Below are positions 1,668 through 32,900 of a stretch of DNA of 64,000 nt, in pieces. This DNA is from a virus. Lineage: Duplodnaviria > Caudoviricetes. A program made the position numbers and the translations under genes. The notes beneath the pieces are model-generated. The model was given only the letters and a program-made list of their open reading frames with translations, had not been told where the DNA came from and did not search any database. Each line of letters starts with the position of its first letter. Position 1 is the first letter of the stretch. The stretch is taken from IMG/VR virus record IMGVR_UViG_3300033463_000005, positions 32,001-96,000 of that record; one strand, 5' to 3'.

Positions 1668-2742
1668 TGGTAAAACGTTCATTGCATTATATTCCGCATC
1701 AAAGTTGGGATTGAAACCATTGATTGTTGCACCAACATCATTATTGAAAAACCAATGGATTGAGAATATCGTTGAACTTGGTATTGATAAGAATGATATT
1801 GCAACAAAGATATGGGATGCACCCGATAAGAAAGTTTGTGTTGTAACAATTTCCTCATTGGAATTGGCAATCCGTGATGATTGGAATCGGTTATTGAAAA
1901 CATTGGATAATTCCGGATTTGGTATCAAAGTTATCGATGAAGCGCATCTTCATTTGAAAGGTATGCTGAAATTTGATGCTTTGTGTAATATCAAACACAA
2001 CTGGTATCTGTCCGCAACACTTGGAAGATCTGATGCAAAAGAGGATCGTATTTTAAATCGTGCTTTAAAAGATGCGGAACGATTCGTTGGAAATTCATCG
2101 TATGAAGAATATCAAAATGAATATGTCCAAGTATATTTCCAAGATATCTACTATTTCCCGTCATCCAGTTTATGTAAAAAATATTTCAAATATGGATCAA
2201 AGGGATTAATCAGAGCTTCTTATTATAAGATGCTTTTGAATTATCGCGGTGGAGATGCATTCATACGAAATCTGATTACGTTGATGAAACGCACAAAAGA
2301 ACTGTTGAATTATGATGCAAAGATTCTGTTGCTGGTTCCGTTGATTGACATTTTGAAACGGCTGTATGATGTTATGAAACGTGATCCATATTTCAGCAGA
2401 TACAAATTTGCAATCATTGAGGGTCATCTGACATTGTCGGAAAGACGTGAAGCAATGGAATCGGATTTCATTCTGTCAACATCTCTATCGATGGGAACTG
2501 GTGTCGATGTTTCAAATCTTGGTGCTGTGATCAATTTTGACCAATATGCATCACCGATTATTACGGAGCAGATCTTTGGTCGACTTAGAGATCGAGGAAA
2601 GGAAACATACTACATCGACGTTTGTGATCATGTCCGGCAAGCACGCGTGATTGCAAACTGGGGTGAACGCAGAAGAATCTTGATTCCATATTTCCCGGGT
2701 GCAAAACAAACGATCAAAAAGTTTTCACGCATTATATGCTAA
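1668..2742 (+). CDS. SF2 (UvsW-like) helicase, exon 2; spliced product 481 aa
   Basis: GKT, motif Ia IVAPTSLL, DEAH, SAT, motif V TGVDV, motif VI QIFGRLR. Confidence 0.88.
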
Positions 2743-2754
2743 AACATGAAAGTA
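2743..2754 (+). promoter_or_regulatory. Late-type phage promoter AACA-N6-TA
   Basis: AACA TGAAAG TA matches the AR9 late promoter consensus. The final A coincides with the first base of the downstream RNA closing stem. Confidence 0.6.
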
Positions 2755-2931
2755 ATCCGGAATGTGTTTCGAATCGTTACACCACGTGAATCTTCTCTCG
2801 AAAGATTGGTTACCTGACCCAATCTTTGGTTCACGCAAAATGTTGAGATTCCATCATATGCGAGTCATGATGGGTGTGTTCCTCCGAACCTCCGAGCACA
2901 ATGCCATTCTCGATTAACAACATTCCGGATT
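2754..2931 (+). ncRNA. Candidate structured small RNA 1 (multibranch, anti-SD loop)
   Basis: A 12-bp closing stem (2754-2765/2920-2931) encloses hairpins 2801-2827, 2851-2873 and 2875-2900. The last carries two CCTCC motifs. Bounded by a promoter and a terminator; no ORF in the track. Confidence 0.7.
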
Positions 2932-2942
2932 TTAGGGTTGTA

Positions 2943-2966
2943 AGTGTGGGGCTTCGGCCCCACACT
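2943..2966. terminator. GC-rich hairpin terminator
   Basis: AGTGTGGGGC-TTCG-GCCCCACACT. Confidence 0.75.
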
Positions 2967-2994
2967 GTATCCTATTATTCTGACTTTTCATATA

Positions 2995-3003
2995 TATATT
3001 ATT
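2995..3003 (+). promoter_or_regulatory. Early-type phage promoter TATATTAT
   Basis: The motif recurs upstream of non-structural genes and resembles the phiKZ early consensus TATATTAC. Confidence 0.6.
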
Positions 3004-3077
3004 AATATGAAGAGAGAATAAATTACTCTCTTTACAAAATTTTTACTGGTCTCTATGAGACCGGAAAGGAGAAAACA

Positions 3078-3413
3078 ATGTTTGTAGTAATATTAAAAGT
3101 TAGGCGGATGACCACAGAAAATGATGAGGTTGTCCTTGACGAAAGATCAGAGAGAGTAATCTCTCTGAGAGCCGATTTGGCTTCCGCAATTGTGGATGCC
3201 AAAAAAGCATCCGACAGTATATGGCTGTCCACATGCCTACTTGAGTATGAAACGACCATGGAATGCGAGCTTGGTGGGCGGTTGAACAACACATGGTGTT
3301 CGCCCGGCGAAAATCCCACAGAATTCGGTGGATATATAGACGATGGCGTCAACCACTTCAATTGGACGACCATTGTTGAGGAAGGTGACTTTTGGGAAGC
3401 AGAAGAATCTTGA
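3078..3413 (+). CDS. Hypothetical acidic early protein
   Basis: RBS GAAAGGAG, downstream of an early-type promoter. Confidence 0.7.
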   Translation: MFVVILKVRRMTTENDEVVLDERSERVISLRADLASAIVDAKKASDSIWLSTCLLEYETTMECELGGRLNNTWCSPGENPTEFGGYIDDGVNHFNWTTIVEEGDFWEAEES

Positions 3414-6448: not shown

Positions 6449-8662
6449 TCAGGAGTATTGTTTTAATTGTTGCAGAATTGGTAAGAGTTGCGTGAATCGC
6501 TCATAGATGGATTCAATATAATCACGTGAGCATCCTTCAAACAGATTGGTTTCGTCGATCATTTTATAGAATTCTATCATGTCTACGAATGGATGTGATT
6601 CTTGATAATACATGAAATAGGAATGCATGATCAAGAAGAATCGAAGATCCGGAATGGATACATCGATTTTCACATTATTGATGTAAACAGGATACGTTTT
6701 ATCAACCGCGCCAATTGTTGAAAATCCAAAGATGTCTGGACGTAATTTGATACCCATAAATTTGAGCGTATTCTTCAGGTTATCCAATTGTGGGAATTGA
6801 TTGTACTTCGACAGATCAACACCCATATCATTCAGCTGCGACATCAGAATGGAATTCTCTTCATATTGTGATCCACGGAAATATGTTGTGATTTTTGAGA
6901 AATCCCGAACACCAACTCCAGCGAGGAAATTGTATGTGTCATATTCACCAAATTTCACGGGGTTATCGGAATAATGACGGAGATTCTTATTGAACTGATG
7001 TGTCTTAACAGGTTGATCATAAAGCGTTGTACGACCAGTCGAAACTGCGGCCAATGATTTAGAAGGCTCCTGCTTTAACACCCAAGTATACTGGAATCCG
7101 ACTGGATATTTATCATCCAATTTGACCCAACGTTTATGAAGCTTTGTGAATACATTATAATGCTTCATAATATCCGGGTATTTATCATATGCTTCCAGAA
7201 TTGCGTCACGAATGCAAACTTCATTAAACGGTTTGATTTGAATAATGTTTCCATTTGTCAGAATGTCATTGATGACAGCATTCGGATTCTCGGCATATAA
7301 CCGGCGAATTTCATCCGCTTGTTGTGGATTGAAGATTCCGACGAAGTCAGAAGTAATCTTCACAATGTCATCATTGGAAGCACCGTCATGATGCATTTTT
7401 GCAATATGTTGATTCATGCGATCCATCATGAACGTCATGGAACCTTCGTATGTTGCGAATGCAATGATACGGTTTGGAACCGCCAACGCATTTGCTAACA
7501 TATGAATCGGTCTACCATCATCCGTTCTCGGCATATCTTCCGTCGGAATGATTTTGGAAATAACGGATTTGTTTCCGTAACGTCCAACGACTTTCTGACC
7601 AACGGCAATCTTCATGGGTTGTAACATCGTGAATTTGATAATGGTATCCGCAATGTATTCCTTTGTAACCCATGTTGAATGATTCAAATACTTTTCTGCT
7701 TGATGGTAGATATCCAGCAGCGAAGTATCATCTTGAAATTTATCATCAAGCAATGCGGAAATATATGCATAGATGTCAGAATACCATTGACGAATTTGTG
7801 TCAGATACATGTTGAATTGCTCGTTCTCAACATCAACATTTGAAAAGATATCAATATCTACAACAGTTCCATGTGAGAAGTAATTCGTGTCATTGATATG
7901 TGGGATGGATGCTTCTGCAAATGTTGATACATATGAATTCTCACGAATGGAGCATAAGATGTTATCCTGCACCTCTTCACCAATATTCGGAAATGGTTTG
8001 TATTCTCCGTCTCTGCCATAACGGTTCAACAGGAATGATTTCTTTGACACATTTACTGTGACAATGTCAACCATATCATATTCCAATGCTTTTGCGGCAT
8101 CCGAAGAAATGATCAACGAATCTTCTGTTAATTGTGGAAGAACCGCATATGCCATTCGAAGATTCACACCAGCACAGTAATTGTCATTTACATATGAAGA
8201 TGATTGTGCAATTGCAGCGCCCTTCTTCAACACATCTCCTTCACGAATCTGTTGAATGTAATTCTTCATTCTGAATCCATATTTCTCAACAAGATTCACG
8301 GCCGGTTTATAAATCTTACAAATGTATTTTCCCGTCGCTAAATTCTGAAAGATGTATGCAATTGGAGAAAATGGTGCATTTGGGAATTTTACAAACTTTT
8401 TCATCAATTTGTAATCGTCAGTTGCACGGACATTCCATGATGAACGTTTTCCAAATTCATTTTCTGCACCGGAGAAAATCATAGGGAATTCCGGATTCCG
8501 CAGAACCAATCTCTGTGACACATGCTTCACCATCATTCCACCACGTGTTGTAGAGATCTTTTCAGGAAATCCCATTGCAGACATTCCAGTTAGTGACAAC
8601 GGATCGACATCAGCACATCTCCGATCGATATCCGATGCATTATTCATAACTTGTTTCGGCAT
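6449..8662 (-). CDS. Multisubunit RNA polymerase beta subunit, C-terminal half (probably non-virion RNAP)
   Basis: GVNLRMAY, TEDSLIIS, GQKVVGRYGNKSVISKI (compare GDK..GRHGNKG), MPRTDDGRP, PVKFGEYD. Early-type TATATGAT promoter at 8749-8756. Confidence 0.9.
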   Translation of the reverse strand: MPKQVMNNASDIDRRCADVDPLSLTGMSAMGFPEKISTTRGGMMVKHVSQRLVLRNPEFPMIFSGAENEFGKRSSWNVRATDDYKLMKKFVKFPNAPFSPIAYIFQNLATGKYICKIYKPAVNLVEKYGFRMKNYIQQIREGDVLKKGAAIAQSSSYVNDNYCAGVNLRMAYAVLPQLTEDSLIISSDAAKALEYDMVDIVTVNVSKKSFLLNRYGRDGEYKPFPNIGEEVQDNILCSIRENSYVSTFAEASIPHINDTNYFSHGTVVDIDIFSNVDVENEQFNMYLTQIRQWYSDIYAYISALLDDKFQDDTSLLDIYHQAEKYLNHSTWVTKEYIADTIIKFTMLQPMKIAVGQKVVGRYGNKSVISKIIPTEDMPRTDDGRPIHMLANALAVPNRIIAFATYEGSMTFMMDRMNQHIAKMHHDGASNDDIVKITSDFVGIFNPQQADEIRRLYAENPNAVINDILTNGNIIQIKPFNEVCIRDAILEAYDKYPDIMKHYNVFTKLHKRWVKLDDKYPVGFQYTWVLKQEPSKSLAAVSTGRTTLYDQPVKTHQFNKNLRHYSDNPVKFGEYDTYNFLAGVGVRDFSKITTYFRGSQYEENSILMSQLNDMGVDLSKYNQFPQLDNLKNTLKFMGIKLRPDIFGFSTIGAVDKTYPVYINNVKIDVSIPDLRFFLIMHSYFMYYQESHPFVDMIEFYKMIDETNLFEGCSRDYIESIYERFTQLLPILQQLKQYS

Positions 8663-8776
8663 AATAGATACTCCCTTCCGTAACATAAATTGTATTTGTT
8701 AGTTACAATGCTTATGATATTAAACACAATCATTGTACATACACGGAAATCATATACATGCCAAAATAAAATTAAT

Positions 8777-19919: not shown

Positions 19920-19998
19920 ATGATAGAGAGGGTGGAGGATGTTAGGAGGTTGACATATCACGGGCAAATATGATATGAATGGCAGCCCTCTCTATCAT
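19920..19998 (-). ncRNA. Candidate structured small RNA 2 (or 5' leader of the 19888 gene)
   Basis: 13-bp closing stem 19920-19932/19986-19998; inner hairpin CATATCA/TGATATG; two anti-SD motifs on the minus strand; AACA-N6-TA promoter at 20009-19998. Confidence 0.6.
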
Positions 19999-22283: not shown

Positions 22284-22404
22284 CAAATCAGGGTGATTCT
22301 TACCCGATGAGTTAAGGTAAGAATCGGCTAGGAGGCAAGCAATGGCCCAATGAGTTCGGAAAATCTTCAACGGCAAGTGAAGATTGGGTTCATCAGATGA
22401 ACTT
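22284..22404 (-). ncRNA. Candidate structured small RNA 3
   Basis: GACA-N6-TA promoter at 22415-22404; hairpins 22388-22402, 22362-22385 and 22295-22325; single-stranded CCTCCT; ends at the 22260-22283 terminator. Confidence 0.55.
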
Positions 22405-22524: not shown

Positions 22525-24846
22525 ATGCCGAAAATGAAAGATGACAAAATCACCATTATAACCAATGACATTGAACGTATTCGGAAACGCCCGAGTATGA
22601 TCATTGGTTTTCTGGGTGAGAGAGGTATTCTGCATTTATGCAAAGAAATCATTGACAACAACCGGGATGAATGTATGAAAACGGAATCTCCTGGTAATAC
22701 AATTGAAATTGAAATTTATAAAGACCATATTGTGTCAAGAGATAATGGTAGAGGTTTACCAACAAATCTACTGCGTACGATTCATGAAACATCGCAGGCG
22801 GGTTCTAATATGACACGTTCTCATGGTACAACTGCAGGTGAGAATGGCATTGGTACAACCGCATTCACAGCATTATCCGCAGTATTGATTGTAACGACAT
22901 ATCGGCCACAAGAGAAAAAGAAATTGACATTGGAATATCATGAGGGTATTCTAGTGAATGAAAAACTGGAAGACTATTCGGGAAGTCATCATGGTTTGGA
23001 GACATATTTCAAACCATCAAAGAAGATTCTCGGTGAATCAGATATCCCGATTGATCAATTGATTGAATGGATTCGGGATTTCGAATATACACTTCCGAAG
23101 AAGACAAACATGTCATACACATTGAATGGTGAGAAACATGAACTGAAACACATTCAATTGAGCGATTATTTCATGGAGAATATTCCGAATGATATGTTCA
23201 TGTCTGCACCCGTTACCATTGAATGCAATGGTGAATTACAAGAGATCATCAATGAGAAAACATATGATCGGCATTTTCATGTGGAAGCATCCGTGATGTA
23301 TGCATCGCCGGATTATCGTGGTGAAGACATCAGAAAATCATGGATGAATATGATTTATACATCACAGAATGGTTCTCATATGAATGGTGTCGTGAATGGT
23401 TTGACAAAGTATCTGTCTGATCGTGCAAAAGCCAAGAAGAAAACATTGGAAAGTGAAGATCTGAAACGCGATATTTTATCACATTTGAATGTCGTTGTTA
23501 AAGCCGAATGTGACTTTGCAAACATGTTCTCGTCTCAAGCGAAGTCCACTGTTTTCCCGAGACAGTTGACAACATCGATTGGTGATGCTGTGTACAAAGA
23601 ATTGTGTGATATGAATCAATCAAAACTGAATGAATTAGTTGAGATTGTGATTCAGAATAACCGTGTTCGAAAAGAAGGAGAACGGGTTCGCAATATTGCG
23701 ACGGAGACGAAAAAGAAACAATGGACAAAGCCGGATTCATATCTTCCGTGCGCTTCCATTAAGACGCCTGAACCAAAAGAACTATTCTTGGTTGAGGGTA
23801 ATTCTGCAGCAGGTGGAATCAATGCAGCACGAAATGCAAAGTATCAAGCAATCTTGATGTTCCGTGGTAAATCGCTGAATGCATGGGATTTGACACTGGA
23901 TCAGACACTGAAATCAAATGTTTGGTTTGATTTGGTGAAGGTTCTTGGGTGTGGAATTGGTCCAACATTTGATATCAAGAAATTAAACTTTGATAAAATC
24001 ATCATCTCAACAGATGCTGACGTTGATGGATATCATATTCGTGTCGGTATGTGTTCCTTCTTCCTTCGTTTCATGCCGGAATTATTGGAAGCGGGAAAGA
24101 TTTATATCGCAGAACCACCGTTATACAAACTCGTCAATGGCAAGCAGATTTTGTATGTTGCATCTCACAGTGAGTATATTCAGGAATGTATTCATTCTGT
24201 CGGTAATGCAACATTACAATTCCAAGACAAGAAAGTCAAAGCCGATGTTTTCATTGAACATGCTTTTGATTATTTGAATACACTGGTTGAAGTATCACTG
24301 GATCGTTCGGTGAATCGTTATCTGTTGGAACACATTGCACATGGTATGGCAATTGCAGGATCTGTTGATGCATTCATTGATGATATTGATGAATGGATTC
24401 GTTCTCTGACAAAGACTTATCCAGAACTTGGATTTGATCATAAATCGCATCAGATTATGGCAACGATCGATCTTGTAGATCAGGTGGTTGTTGTGGATGA
24501 AGCATTGTACAATGCGTTGATTTATGTGATTAACATTCAAAAAGAATATGGTATGATTGTAGCATTCGATTGCAGGACAACATCGATTGGACGTTTCTTT
24601 GAGGATATTCAAAAGAAATATCCCGTCATCAAAGAGCGTTATAAAGGTCTCGGCTCATCTGATGCAAAAGTATCAAAGGAAATTATCATGGATCCTCGCA
24701 CAAGAAGAATCTTCAGAATCGACGCATCTGATGTCAATATCATGAAGACATATGACATGTTGGTTGGTAAGACACCGGATGATATCAAAGCGCGAAAAGA
24801 AATGTTAATGAATTTCGAATGGAAACCGTCTGACATCGATACATGA
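22525..24846 (+). CDS. gyrB: Type II topoisomerase subunit B (GyrB/ParE-like)
   Basis: IRKRPSM, EIIDNNRDE, DNGRGLP, GENGIG, EGNSA, FRGK, TDADVDG, RYKGLG. Early-type promoter at 22427-22434. Confidence 0.92.
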   Translation: MPKMKDDKITIITNDIERIRKRPSMIIGFLGERGILHLCKEIIDNNRDECMKTESPGNTIEIEIYKDHIVSRDNGRGLPTNLLRTIHETSQAGSNMTRSHGTTAGENGIGTTAFTALSAVLIVTTYRPQEKKKLTLEYHEGILVNEKLEDYSGSHHGLETYFKPSKKILGESDIPIDQLIEWIRDFEYTLPKKTNMSYTLNGEKHELKHIQLSDYFMENIPNDMFMSAPVTIECNGELQEIINEKTYDRHFHVEASVMYASPDYRGEDIRKSWMNMIYTSQNGSHMNGVVNGLTKYLSDRAKAKKKTLESEDLKRDILSHLNVVVKAECDFANMFSSQAKSTVFPRQLTTSIGDAVYKELCDMNQSKLNELVEIVIQNNRVRKEGERVRNIATETKKKQWTKPDSYLPCASIKTPEPKELFLVEGNSAAGGINAARNAKYQAILMFRGKSLNAWDLTLDQTLKSNVWFDLVKVLGCGIGPTFDIKKLNFDKIIISTDADVDGYHIRVGMCSFFLRFMPELLEAGKIYIAEPPLYKLVNGKQILYVASHSEYIQECIHSVGNATLQFQDKKVKADVFIEHAFDYLNTLVEVSLDRSVNRYLLEHIAHGMAIAGSVDAFIDDIDEWIRSLTKTYPELGFDHKSHQIMATIDLVDQVVVVDEALYNALIYVINIQKEYGMIVAFDCRTTSIGRFFEDIQKKYPVIKERYKGLGSSDAKVSKEIIMDPRTRRIFRIDASDVNIMKTYDMLVGKTPDDIKARKEMLMNFEWKPSDIDT

Positions 24847-24859
24847 GGAGGTGCCCGTT

Positions 24860-26866
24860 ATGGCATTTGATTGGATGCATGACCCGAAATATGAATTGTT
24901 TGATGATTTATCACAGATTAACGAAATCACAACCCCCGAGCAGATACATGAACTGCTCGGGGATCCCATTGTGTTAGAGCGATATCAAAACAATTATGAT
25001 TACTTGTTCAACCGTGTTGTCGCAATCGGTGAACTGTGCTGGGGTAATCGAGATGAAAATGGCAATAAACTTCAGAAGACTATGATTCAAATCAAAAAGA
25101 GTATTGAAGATAATGTGACAACAGATGTCCGTGTATTACCATTGAATCGATTGATGATGTCATTAACGTTCCTTCGTCCAATTATGATGTATCTGGAATA
25201 CATCAATCTGGATGAATTTCTGTTGGATACCAATATGACAGAAAAACGCAGAAGGACTGTACAAGATCGAATCGTGCATGTTCTCCAACAATTCGGAACA
25301 CCGATTGTGGAGATTCAAGAAAAGATGTCACGGTTATCGCTGGATTGGAAAATGTTGATGATCACATTCTCCGAAGCAGATATGCAAATCTATACCGCAG
25401 AGAATCTGTTCCTTGATCATTATCGGGATTCTGAAATCATCCGCGAAATCAACAACACGGAATATCCACCTGATATGCAGACTGCAGATATTGTGGAAGA
25501 AAATGCAAAACGCTATGAAGTTTTGGAGAAGATTATGCTGGAACGTGGAAACCCGTTCTTTGTCGGAAATAAATATACAAAACTCGTGAAACCGAAACAA
25601 ATGGAAGAGTTGTATATTAACTTCTCACAGATTCCAGATGGTAGAAATATCATTCCGGTTATCATGAATGGAAATGGTTTCCGTGCAGGATATCATTCGC
25701 TGCCAGTGTTCTATACTGGTGCAATTGCAGCACGTGTTCCTGATATCATGAATAAGGACTATATGGGTCAAGCGGGATACTTCAACCGAAATCTGATGAT
25801 GCTTGCATATGGAACCGTATCACCAACCGTGTATGATTGTGGATCACAGAATCCGATTCCGATTACAATTGATGATGTGAATCTTCAAATGTTTGACGGA
25901 AGATACTATTATAATGATCCGCATGATGGTGTTCTTCATGTATTACATAAGAACCAAAAAGACATGATCGGAAAGAAACTGTGGTTCCGTTCTCCGTGTA
26001 CATGCAATCTGAATGAAGATTGCTGTCATATCTGCTATGGTCAACGCGCATTGAAGGTTGCTGATCTAAAAGGTGGATTCATTTATACAACTGAGCTGAT
26101 GACATCACGTGTCTCACAGAACATTCTTTCCGCAAAACATCTTCTGAAAAGTAATGCAGAAAAGATCGAATATTCTGAAAGCTTCGATAAATACTTCATC
26201 GTTGATATGTCAACCATTATCCCGAAAGATGATAAGCGGTTTGACATTTTCATCAGAGAAGATTACATGGATGATATTTCCGAAAAGTTCACATGTTATG
26301 TGACAAAGGATATGATTCCAGTTACAATCTCGAAGTATGCATCATTGTCAATTCCGGATAGTATTATGGATAAATGCAAAGACGTTGTCATTGATGATGT
26401 GACATATCATAAGATTACATCATACAAAATCATTGAATCCGGTGGACAATTTGCAGTTGTCATTCCGATCAATATCATGATGACAAAGAAATACATGGAC
26501 ATCATGCGGTTATTCGAATCTGATATTACGAAGTTTGATTCCATTGAAGCAATTGTGGATGCATTGTCTCATATGTGTTATGGTGTGATTCCAATTCTAT
26601 CAACACATGGCGAAATTTTGATTGGACATCATATTCGTTCTATGGAGAATCGGTTACTGCGACCCGATTGGTTGGTTCCGAATCAGAAATATCAAATCAT
26701 GCGTTTGAAAACAGTGTTGCAGAATATCGAATCGTTTGCAACGGCAATGTCGTTTGAACAAACAAAACACCATCTGTATCATTCTATCTTTGACGAAAGA
26801 AATGAGATCAATCGTGTTGGTGCACGTTCGTTCTCTGATTACATCTTCGGATCCGAGACTTTGTGA
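24860..26866 (+). CDS. RNA polymerase beta' subunit, C-terminal part (probably non-virion RNAP)
   Basis: Bridge-helix-like AGYFNRNL, DCGS, Zn site RSPCTC...CCHICYG, trigger-loop-like SQNILSAKH, HGEILI, SFEQ. Confidence 0.85.
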   Translation: MAFDWMHDPKYELFDDLSQINEITTPEQIHELLGDPIVLERYQNNYDYLFNRVVAIGELCWGNRDENGNKLQKTMIQIKKSIEDNVTTDVRVLPLNRLMMSLTFLRPIMMYLEYINLDEFLLDTNMTEKRRRTVQDRIVHVLQQFGTPIVEIQEKMSRLSLDWKMLMITFSEADMQIYTAENLFLDHYRDSEIIREINNTEYPPDMQTADIVEENAKRYEVLEKIMLERGNPFFVGNKYTKLVKPKQMEELYINFSQIPDGRNIIPVIMNGNGFRAGYHSLPVFYTGAIAARVPDIMNKDYMGQAGYFNRNLMMLAYGTVSPTVYDCGSQNPIPITIDDVNLQMFDGRYYYNDPHDGVLHVLHKNQKDMIGKKLWFRSPCTCNLNEDCCHICYGQRALKVADLKGGFIYTTELMTSRVSQNILSAKHLLKSNAEKIEYSESFDKYFIVDMSTIIPKDDKRFDIFIREDYMDDISEKFTCYVTKDMIPVTISKYASLSIPDSIMDKCKDVVIDDVTYHKITSYKIIESGGQFAVVIPINIMMTKKYMDIMRLFESDITKFDSIEAIVDALSHMCYGVIPILSTHGEILIGHHIRSMENRLLRPDWLVPNQKYQIMRLKTVLQNIESFATAMSFEQTKHHLYHSIFDERNEINRVGARSFSDYIFGSETL

Positions 26867-29949: not shown

Positions 29950-32900
29950 ATGGCAAGATTTTTAGGATATGCAAATCATATCTGGAAAGAACATCAATCC
30001 TTCACATATACCGGTGTACCACAATCTTTCACATTACAACCCGGCACATATTTGTTGACATGTGGTGGTGCACAAGGTGGGCATACATTTGCTGCTGATA
30101 GTGGTGATGATACAACCCGCACAACAGGTATTGGTGGTGTTTCATATGGTATCATTCAATTGAATGAATCAAAAACACTACAAGCATATGTGGGTGGGGA
30201 TGGTGAGAATAGTTATGCAGCAACACGTACATATGGGCGTGGTGGCTGGAATGGTGGTGGAGATGGTGCTCCATCTTATCATGCATTAAATACATCACCA
30301 ACTTATCCATATGATTTTGGTGCAGGTGGTGGCGGTGCATCTGATATTCGTTTATTATCTGAAGATGATGTGCCCGTTACATTTCAACCAACATTACCAG
30401 ATGAATATCAACAAGTTGAATACTTGGATACAACAAATGTGACCCAATATTTGAATACTGGTTGGACACCCACTTCAACTGATACTATCGAGACAAAAAT
30501 ATCATTTGCATCTGATATCGCATCTTCACAATCTGTATGCGGTGTGAATGTACCTTCATCAGTATGGAATTTCAATATTAAAAATGAAACAATTGCGACA
30601 ACAGATCCATTGATTCCAAATATGACATCTAACTCTGATCAGATTGGTATCATCACATATGGTGGTGGATACTGTTATGGTTCATTTGGATATATTGAAC
30701 CATGGAATGCATTCGATGGTAATACATCAACAAGTGTATATTATAAAGATTATGATGTGACAAATGGTTGGTTACAATATGAATTCCGAACTGCAAAATC
30801 GATTGCAACAATTGTTGCAAGAATGAGCAGTAGTTCAGGTCCAACAGACGTTTCATTATATGTATATGATGAAAATGATACGGAAACATTGATTGAAACA
30901 AAATCCATTTCATCAACAGCAGACTATACATTTACATTGAATCAAATCGTAAAACGATTTAAATTTGTATATGGATATTCATCATGGAATCAGAATTGTT
31001 TCACATATACTGTGCAAGCATATGCAATGACAGATATGATTCAACCAATGGTTCAGAATATTTATGGCTCTGGAACGGCATCATTTATAAATACTGGCAT
31101 TCCCGCAAATACACCCGCAATTTACAAGATAACACCAACCAACATAGTCGTTGATGATATTACTGTTGATACCGAAACGACAACTGGTTCTGTTGCAAAT
31201 TCACCAATGGGACTATTTGCAACACGTTCAAATGATTCACCCGCGGTATATTCCAATCCATTCCATGGTAAGTTATACTTCTTCCGGGCTATCAGTTATA
31301 AAACGAATGCTCAATTTGTATGTGATCCCGGGTTTTATTTCGATTCCCCTGTATCATGTGTCATTGCTGGACGAACTTTTACATCCACTGGAACTTCACC
31401 AATTATTGCATTCGTTGTTCATATGAATGGATATAGTGCAATGCAAATTATATCTACTGATCGTAATAGTGTGCAATATACATGTTCATTTGGATCAAAT
31501 AATATTGTTAACGCATCAGTTGAATATAAAGGGATGACATTTTATTGGGGTGACATAGATTATTCAATGGAGGGTGAATATTATGATGATTCATCTGGAA
31601 ATTTGCAAACCTATCCTGGATCACTCGAATATTCATCTGGTGCCACACCATCTGCAATTTTACAAGTATTGGAATCATTGCATGTCAAACCCGCGTCAGA
31701 TGAGAATATAAAAAAATGTGAATTGATTCCTTGTTATCGAAAATCTGATCATGTTCCTGGAATGTATGACACTGTATCTGAACAATTTATCACGGGTGAA
31801 GTATTTGGTGTTACATTTGGAATTGGTCCAGAAGGAACATATGAAATCCCCATACCACTATCACAAACTACTGAATCATATCAACATAAACAGTCATTGT
31901 TATCTCGTATCATTGTTGCAGGTGGTGCTGGTGGTGGTTCTAAATGCGCAGGAAATGCAGCTGTTGATTATAATCGACCTGATATTTGCAACTATGGTGG
32001 TGGTATTGTTGGTAGTCCATATATTTCTAAAAATGATACTACCAAAAATCTTGTTCAAGCAACACAATCATCTGGATATGGATTTGGTATTGGTGAAATC
32101 GCCGTATATCCATCTTCTTCAAGTACAACAGGTTCATCTGGTGGTGGTGGCGGTTGGTATGGTGGTTACACCACATCACCTGCATTGAGCATTAGTTATG
32201 CATCATCACCCGGAAGTGGTGGTTCTGGATATGTGTTGACAAGTTCCTCGTATAAACCAGACGGTTATATTCCAAATTCTGATTTCTATATGACACATGC
32301 ACTGACATTGGGTAATCGTGCAGAATCTGCATTTGTAAAGATTTATAAACTCGATGATGTTGCAAATTTGAATCATGATGATGTAATTGAATTTCCATCC
32401 GTTGGACATTCTGAAACAATTGCATTGAATCCTGGCACATATACAATGAAATGTTGGGGTGCCGATGGTGGTGCATCTTATAATGTTACGGATGGTGGAC
32501 GTGGTGGATACGCTGAAGGAAAAGTATTATTCCAAAATATTGAGAATCTTCAAATATCTACCGGTGGTTCTGGTATTGGTGATATGATGTCACAGATGTT
32601 ACCATCATTCCCAGACATGTACTACAATGGTGGTGGTGTGTCATCAGACTATACATTATCTGCATCTGTCCATGGTGGTGGAGGCGGTGGCGCATCGGAT
32701 GTACGTGTGATCACTTCGCTAGAACCAACTGAAATTTCCGATGTTCGTGTATTACCAGATACATTCCAAGCAATTGAATATATCGAATTCGATGGTCATC
32801 AATATTATGATACTGGATTTTATGCGCAATATGATTGTTCTATGGAATCCGATATTATGATGACAGATGCTTCAATTGCAGTGGGCAATTCATGGTTAAC

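Follow-up and report, generated by a model that had tools for sequence, protein, structure and literature searches.

A multibranched RNA behind the helicase gene of an AR9-like jumbo phage: a new structured family with exposed CCUCC motifs and a probable role at phage ribosome-binding sites

What might a compact element bounded by a perfect inverted repeat, lodged directly behind a phage helicase gene, be doing, and does it act as an RNA at all? The window analysed here is a 64,000-nucleotide stretch of DNA (from base 32001 to base 96000 in the 258.5-kb record of an uncultured rumen phage, genome G000), to which the coordinates below refer unless they are given as genome positions. Downstream of a gene for an SF2 helicase with the Pfam domains ResIII and Helicase_C it contains a segment that a sequence-only reading had proposed to be a stand-alone, multibranched structured noncoding RNA of the + strand. 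The comparative fold, the promoter and terminator motifs and an unconserved reading frame support this proposal, and the exposed motifs of the RNA suggest that, late in infection, it probably occludes ribosome-binding sites in a small number of phage genes.

Fold and family of the RNA

The folded element occupies 2754-2931 on the + strand (178 nt) and begins 12 nt past the helicase stop codon. RNAfold predicts for this strand a multibranched structure shut by a perfect 12-bp stem, with a minimum free energy of -54.5 kcal/mol (z -3.41) that is reached by 0 of 200 dinucleotide shuffles; the shuffling check recommended by the sequence-only reading hence comes out in favor of a genuine fold. All the stems which that reading had named are present in the sequence, including the closing stem with its 12 perfect pairs, and the presence of a structured RNA at 2754-2931 is confirmed. 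One of its inner helices, AATCG/CGATT, could indeed pair, but is not the register favored by RNAfold or by the relatives. The parts of the locus are as follows:

2743..2754, + strand: AR9-type late promoter motif AACA-TGAAAG-TA, whose last A (2754) is the predicted +1
2754..2931, + strand: RNA core, 178 nt, bounded by the stem that closes its 5' end on its 3' end; one copy in the genome
2754..2765, + strand: P1 5' arm AAUCCGGAAUGU, pairing with 2920-2931 in 12 perfect pairs
2785..2835, + strand: P2, with outer and inner stems and the loop UUACCUGAC
2785-2792/2828-2835, + strand: P2 outer stem CGTGAATC/GGTTCACG, present in the sequence
2793-2800, + strand: CU-rich bulge of P2, UUCUCUCG
2801-2809/2819-2827, + strand: P2 inner stem AAAGATTGG/CCAATCTTT, present in the sequence
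2851..2873, + strand: P3 hairpin CCAUCAU/AUGAUGG (arms 2851-2857/2867-2873), loop AUGCGAGUC
2857..2890, + strand: proposed target-pairing segment (3' side of P3, 5' strand and loop of P4), complementary to ribosome sites of the GGAGGAACAC type
2875..2900, + strand: P4 hairpin UGUGUUC/GAGCACA (arms 2875-2881/2894-2900), with a U.G pair
2920..2931, + strand: P1 3' arm ACAUUCCGGAUU, pairing with 2754-2765
2943..2966, + strand: GC-rich hairpin AGUGUGGGGC-UUCG-GCCCCACACU, presumed terminator, 11 nt past P1

The 12-nt loop of P4, CUCCGAACCUCC, belongs to a stretch with two CCUCC motifs, starting at 2881 and 2889, whose predicted unpaired probabilities are 0.77 and 0.92. The - strand of 2754-2931 folds nearly equally well (z -2.56), so that the strand of the RNA is not given by folding alone. 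The U-G pair of P4, which had been taken to favor the + strand, is present, but on its own is a weak argument, with 7 G.U against 5 A.C cells over the family, a count that is indecisive for the strand. The RNA is assigned to the + strand because the order of promoter and terminator settles the matter.

A search seeded with the helicase recovered 15 viral and 28 metagenome loci, and the search for homologues advocated by the sequence-only reading yielded nine further distinct full-length versions of the RNA and another two truncated at contig ends, all from related phages of 250 kb that are likewise uncultured. The window RNA and these 11 relatives keep the ends AAUCC[G/A]G...C[C/U]GGAUU and fall into a long class of ~175 nt (the window, L069 and L002) and a short class of ~130 nt (L004, L005, L006 and L077), the RNAs of L003 and L008/L089 being intermediate between the two. 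Nine sequences, seven full-length and two cut by contig ends, were aligned with a covariance model of the short class (R1); 90.5% of the cells in this alignment are paired and both sides have changed in 13 of the 30 pairs, a degree of covariation matched by 0 of 500 shuffles, while controls with slid partners are 32-50% paired. Run on the + strand of the window, R1 does not detect the long class, for which reason the two classes were analysed separately; counted over the window, L069 and L002, the window fold is 92.8% paired with 4 double-change pairs. The double changes and the shuffle result together place the fold beyond chance on comparative grounds. All ten full-length versions also fold better than their dinucleotide shuffles, with z-scores from -2.3 to -5.2.

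The substitutions are distributed over several helices. In P1 a G-C pair is replaced by A-U in L069, an A-U by G-C in L003, L008 and L077, and a U-A by C-G in L005, while the outer seven pairs of this stem are invariant across the close family. The outer stem of P2 shows two double changes relative to L069 and L002, in both of which its inner stem is exchanged for CCGG/CCGG with the loop retained, and the P4 stem covaries with that of L069 (GGUGUUC/GAACGCC). A pseudoknot linking the GCGRG of the P3 loop to the CU-rich junction was considered, as was a GUGU/ACAC helix that RNAalifold offered as an alternative; neither is supported with so few sequences. Beyond these relatives, a search of IMG/VR with the exact pattern of the closing-stem arms gave no further matches, blastn of the locus against cultured phages gave no match, and a pattern built on the conserved 3' junction recovered the known loci along with ~40 unrelated matches lacking the 5' arm.

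The RNA is also distinct from known families. Rfam 15 at gathering thresholds has no match in the whole window, and in the region 2600-3100 relaxation to E-values up to 10 recovers chance-level matches only, none of which spans the element; the best of those inside it is sR44 (10.3 bits, E 7). ARAGORN finds no tRNA or tmRNA gene in the window, and the contention that the element is neither of these, nor a recognised riboswitch, is thus borne out by both programs. As judged from its sequence and fold, the RNA is a new family, and with its covariation support it offers a clean new structured family for RNA databases.

Transcription signals and independence of the unit

The helicase stop codon (2740-2742) lies at the 5' edge of the motif AACA-N6-TA. 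In Bacillus phage AR9, the closest relative in culture, the late promoter has the form AACA-(6N)-TA/G, with its last base as the transcription start site (PMC5312081), and the window sequence 2743-2754 conforms to this consensus. In 12 of 12 copies AAC[AG]-N6-TA precedes the RNA in one register, directly followed by AAUCC, with AACA in the window, L069 and L002 and AACG in the other nine homologues. Upstream of genes in this genome AACA-N6-T[AG] occurs 42 times in the sense and 19 times in the antisense orientation. A start at A2754 would leave the two terminal bases of the 178-nt core paired with each other in the closing stem. An equivalent GC-rich hairpin with other stem letters occurs 12-20 nt past each of the ten complete homologues. 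The sequence-only reading had credited the element with a promoter and terminator of its own: the AACA-N6-TA motif and the GC-rich hairpin are indeed there, but no sigma-70-type promoter was found upstream, and a terminator scan based on T-runs does not call the 2943-2966 hairpin, which lacks a clear T-run, so that the promoter claim is valid only in the AR9 sense. At the level of motifs, then, the element has the makings of a late unit, namely a promoter, a terminator and no conserved reading frame.

The kinship with AR9 extends beyond the promoter. The nearest cultured relatives of the helicase are those of AR9/PBS1, Staphylococcus and phiR1-37 jumbo phages. Two products of the window resemble subunits of the AR9 non-virion RNA polymerase (nvRNAP): that of 6449-8686 on the - strand matches 7s00_C (E 1e-55), and that of 24860-26866 on the + strand is a beta'-like subunit matching PDB 7s00_D (E 2.4e-27) as well as PHIKZ074. 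The stretch 22525-24846 encodes a GyrB-like topoisomerase subunit. The likeness to AR9 late units thus comprises the exact late motif, whose last A is the predicted +1, an identical early consensus close by, and homologous polymerase subunits and helicase; the difference is that only a plain hairpin follows the helicase gene of AR9, with no counterpart of the RNA there. The AR9 transcriptome paper reports antisense RNAs, and the terms small RNA, sRNA and noncoding RNA are absent from it (PMC5312081). The early promoter of AR9 is AAATATATATTAT-(6N)-G (PMC5312081), and a motif of this type, ATATATATTAT-N6-G, is located at 2992-3009, between the RNA terminator and a same-strand operon starting at 3078; its 10-nt core with spacing, TATATATTAT-N6-G, has 13 exact copies in the genome, and the early motif also lies 3' of the RNA in L003, L004, L006 and L077. 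The helicase gene itself is in two parts (970-1395 and 1645-2742), with a ~327-nt insert at 1341-1667 at the Walker A site that is missing from the intact 482-aa orthologs of L069 and L004; within it Rfam shows a weak group I intron match below gathering (1353-1653, 21.4 bits, E 0.003).

Two readings would deny the element the status of an independent RNA gene. Its perfect 12-bp terminal inverted repeat and an ATG-led frame of 51 codons (2762-2917) could be attributed to a small mobile element, to a site at the level of the DNA or to a gene for a small protein. However, the RNA is present once per genome and always at the same locus (G000 and G001-G003; four to five genomes), and the multiple dispersed copies that typify MITEs are not seen in these genomes. 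The covarying internal hairpins also count against this reading. The frame opening at nt 9, with ATG or GTG, encodes unrelated peptides of 29-120 aa in the ten full-length versions, starts 8 nt from +1 without a ribosome site and has no family in Pfam; the unrelated peptides argue that the element is not coding. This reading is already largely refuted, and we consider it very improbable. A cis-acting element appears improbable too, though less severely so: it could be a stabiliser or processing site in the helicase 3' UTR, a leader hiding the next gene's ribosome site in late read-through transcripts, or an insulator separating convergent units. The RNA abuts the helicase stop in most genomes in the same orientation as the helicase, an operon with an early promoter follows on the same strand (3078 onward), and in AR9 some genes have an early as well as a late promoter (PMC5312081). 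Against this, a terminator (in L003, L008 and L089) or an opposite-strand gene (in L002) intervenes between helicase and RNA with the promoter motif kept, and L005, L069 and L008 have a convergent next gene, which leaves the RNA no downstream gene to lead. A riboswitch or 5' leader would be located upstream of, and co-oriented with, its controlled gene in all members, which is not the case in these three loci. The retention of the motif despite separation, and the convergent neighbors, point to a stand-alone + strand unit rather than a helicase 3' UTR or a downstream leader.

The CCUCC motif and candidate targets

Within the close family the constant features are the outer P1 pairs, the GCGRG motif of the P3 loop (common to the window and the short-class relatives) and the hairpin loop with CCUCC, to which the short and intermediate classes add the junction AUAAUACACCAUUCG, conserved in six lineages. 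For the conserved CCUCC of the ten full-length versions the unpaired probability is 0.77-1.0, compared with ~0.4 over the entire RNA. Phages further away (helicase identity 58-61%) have unalignable RNAs at the same position, several of which begin with AAUC after a similar motif, and each again presents an unpaired CCUCC(U), the sole motif common to every version of the locus. The scaffolds of these helicase-downstream RNAs span ~45 to 250 nt, from a 250-nt multibranch to the minimal versions of L013 and L082, which hold hardly anything beyond ACCUCCUA and a terminator. Wherever the spacer downstream of the helicase leaves space ahead of the terminator, an unpaired CCUCC is present; at loci without a spacer, where the terminator directly follows the helicase, CCUCC is found only inside the terminator stem, if at all. 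CCUCC is the anti-Shine-Dalgarno core of 16S rRNA, and Shine-Dalgarno sites are heavily used in this phage, the 4-nt core preceding 74% of the genes and GGAGG 32%. Given the unpaired motif and this heavy use, pairing with ribosome-binding sites is the simplest reading, and the unpaired, conserved seed expected of an anti-Shine-Dalgarno small RNA is found in the ten versions as well as the divergent ones.

Whether particular messages are preferred is a separate issue. The segment GUGUUCCUCC (2876-2885) is complementary to GGAGGAACAC, which is found at four of this genome's ribosome sites. When CCUCC was kept and its flanks were shuffled, 58% of the decoy loops matched the best duplex in this genome (-24.4), and single-genome target prediction was rejected as evidence on this count; specificity is accordingly a matter of cross-genome matching. 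There, the flank of the seed and the sites of one gene appear to have changed together. In genome G002 the 12-mer complementary to the short-class RNA occurs once only, on the ortholog of one of the four genes with GGAGGAACAC sites, which encodes a 301-aa protein (genome position 24808). At this gene the site GGAGGAACAC meets the RNA sequence GUGUUCCUCC in G000, AAGGAGGAAAACAC meets GUGUUUUCCUCCUU in G002, AAGGAGGAAAACACA meets UGUGUUUUCCUCCUU in G005, and AGGAGGAACAUC meets GAUGUUCCUCCU in G003. A separate AUGCCAUG/CAUGGCAU block is present in G006, and in G001 the register is off by one base. Among the matched changes, a shift from AA to AAAA in the site goes with UU to UUUU in the RNA, and C to U goes with G to A.

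Over six genomes the cognate duplexes at the 301-aa gene sum to -161.4 kcal/mol versus -138.4 (sd 7.9) for permuted pairs, and 0.7% of 720 permutations are as good as the cognate pairing, in a comparison that amounts to about four independent lineages with mutually interchangeable short-class RNAs and sites, and with energies that leave out the RNA's own helices (P4 takes up the GUGUU strand, and the longer pairings involve the P3 stem). Among 102 ortholog groups built over four genomes, including three whole relatives, the gene for the 301-aa protein comes first by rank product, lying in the top 1-2.5% of each genome with its own RNA, and the neighboring gene for a 230-aa protein ranks second; both are poorer fits than other genes to the generic 16S tail. 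The 301-aa protein could be assigned no function by Pfam, PHROGs, a PDB sequence search or the Atlas. With a longer RNA segment, a further gene combines the strongest cognate preference with the lowest cognate energy of the 102 groups:

24835..24867, + strand: candidate target, the initiation region of the nvRNAP beta'-like gene (ATG 24860), with the strongest cognate preference

This gene was picked out by its cognate preference before its nvRNAP beta'-like identity emerged. In the six-genome test 1.25% of the permutations equal its cognate pairing, with G005 and G006 pairing only generically. The sites of polymerase-subunit genes near the RNA (6025 and 8686, - strand) were considered as well and proved poor matches, with ranks 117 and 81.

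Site types were counted as well. Sites of the form GGAGGAACA occur 6 and 7 times in the two genomes with GUUCCUCC in the RNA (UU before CCUCC) and 0 times in the two with UUUUCCUCC (UUUU); 8- and 9-mer counts of GGAGGAAC versus GGAGGAAAA over five genomes display only a weak trend. Genes behind early and late motifs show no difference in Shine-Dalgarno strength. Four genes in this genome have the extended ribosome site (A)AGGAGGAACAC, at genome positions 11121, 24793, 87465 (window 55465) and 236164, and their relatives display lineage-specific variants with AAA or AAAA replacing AA. Taken together, the compensated complementarity, in which cognate pairs outdo swapped ones in both permutation tests over about four lineages alongside a negative decoy test, is suggestive of target specificity across genomes. 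The joint change of the RNA flank and the ribosome sites of the 301-aa and nvRNAP beta'-like genes is a hint of a specific regulon, and possibly of feedback.

Mode of action and relation to known regulators

The reading that best unites these observations, to which we attach a rough probability of 0.55, is that the element specifies a late, stable, trans-acting RNA that pairs with Shine-Dalgarno regions. The gene would be read late by the phage's own non-virion RNA polymerase from the AR9-type promoter, with transcription running from A2754 to the GC hairpin at 2943-2966, and the closing stem could shield both ends of the RNA from exonucleases. The hairpin loop with its two CCUCC seeds would then pair with GGAGG ribosome-binding sites, and the duplex might extend into the 5' strand of P4 (GUGUU), covering the stretch from the Shine-Dalgarno sequence to the AUG and excluding 30S subunits. 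From these motifs and complementarities we infer transcription of the RNA, its timing, its pairing in vivo and the resulting repression. The preferred targets would be the few phage mRNAs with GGAGGAACAC ribosome sites, including those of the 301-aa protein (genome position 24808) and the nvRNAP beta'-like subunit, and the RNA would be a late brake on both. A small phage regulon that possibly includes a polymerase subunit is thus envisaged.

Two other readings accept an independent RNA and assign it a different activity. It might be a general mimic of the 16S tail devoid of gene specificity, either soaking up Shine-Dalgarno leaders in a shut-off of host or early messages, or titrating a protein or nuclease that binds the anti-Shine-Dalgarno sequence. 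CCUCC(U) being the only universal motif amid widely different flanks would accord with this, as would the finding that loops with shuffled flanks reach equally good single targets, the bareness of the L013/L082 versions, and the presence in the same genome of at least one further RNA behind a late promoter, again with two unpaired CCUCC motifs. We nevertheless regard it as unlikely, for flank and ribosome-site changes are matched between genomes, the best conserved candidates differ from the best generic binders of the 16S tail, and titration in bulk demands a very high copy number. Somewhat less likely again is a protein-binding or catalytic RNA acting by its three-dimensional fold, for instance as a scaffold, a decoy for defence systems or RNases, or a polymerase regulator, with CCUCC as but one contact. 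Such a role would account for the multibranched junction with its invariant outer P1 pairs, the conserved GCGRG loop and AUAAUACACCAUUCG junction, and an architecture exceeding what is usual in base-pairing small RNAs; yet the scaffold varies across the wider clade while CCUCC is kept, no ribozyme or protein-binding family of Rfam matches it, and no partner gene is consistently adjacent. Even under the preferred reading of pairing with Shine-Dalgarno regions, the seven invariant outer P1 pairs and the AUAAUACACCAUUCG junction are unexplained, and suggest a specific contact with a protein or within the tertiary structure.

Base-pairing regulators of comparable type are known from cellular genomes. 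In Firmicutes RsaE/RoxS, the hairpins of S. aureus RNAIII and Listeria LhrC use C-rich loop seeds to block GGAG(G) ribosome sites. The phage RNA resembles these in having its own promoter and a hairpin terminator in a Shine-Dalgarno-using, probably Gram-positive setting, and in its unpaired C-rich loop motif, for which pairing to ribosome sites is predicted here. It differs in showing no homology to them in sequence or structure (no Rfam match), in stemming from a lytic jumbo phage with a late promoter for a phage polymerase, in having its ends locked in a 12-bp closing stem round a multibranch junction, and in its candidate targets, which are phage genes. In alphaproteobacteria, the CcsR or 'cuckoo' family and NfeR1 possess anti-Shine-Dalgarno CCUCCUCCC loops (PMC4615179, PMC10746234). 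These RNAs likewise show a literal anti-Shine-Dalgarno sequence, often repeated, in the loops of a structured RNA, but belong to another host phylum, have another fold and are chromosomal and regulated by stress or nitrogen. Phage regulatory RNAs reviewed recently, such as OOP, c4 of P1/P7, IsrK and AsxR, similarly control translation or mRNA fate by pairing, but come from temperate phages and prophages of enterobacteria (PMC12197685); jumbo phages and Bacillus are absent from this 2025 review, which mentions Shine-Dalgarno once, for a host small RNA (PMC12197685).

By function, therefore, the RNA belongs with the anti-Shine-Dalgarno and C-rich-seed small RNAs of Firmicutes and alphaproteobacteria, and the phage setting, the promoter for a late polymerase and the closed multibranch architecture are new for this kind. 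To our knowledge, when genes are expressed in jumbo phages that encode RNA polymerases of their own has so far been accounted for by promoter classes alone. If the RNA mimics the sequence by which the ribosome docks on messages, a translational layer would be added to the late program of jumbo phages, and if the link to the polymerase subunit is true, that layer would be autoregulatory. A wider generalisation, doubtful at present, is that AR9-like jumbo phages of gut Firmicutes use anti-Shine-Dalgarno RNAs made late by their nvRNAP to shut off defined phage messages, including that of their own polymerase subunit, in a co-evolving feedback loop. The locus constitutes a testable case: the RNA is defined, there are two candidate ribosome sites, and at least four phage lineages supply natural compensatory variants.

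Several further stretches recall the design of this unit. At ~19920-19998 (- strand) of the window lies a second small unit, in which GAACA-N6-TA precedes a 13-bp closing stem, GAUAGAGAGGG/CCCUCUCUAUC, and unpaired CAACCUCCUAACAUCCUCCA; this second CCUCC RNA candidate has no blast-detectable relatives in G001-G004. A third intergenic stretch, 22284-22404 (- strand), has GCCUCCUAG before a GC hairpin, with a flank partly similar in G003. Outside the window, at genome positions 138,588-138,699 (- strand), GAACA-N6-TA is directly followed by ACCUCCUAAAC, which is the 5' motif of the minimal RNAs of L013 and L082. Extra inserts lie between helicase and RNA in some relatives: that of L003 (4072-4257) is another folded element that has GGUACCUCCAAU and a terminator of its own, and that of L008/L089 (L008:2140-2388) a unit starting AAUCCCUGC which contains GGAGG and a 38-codon ORF.
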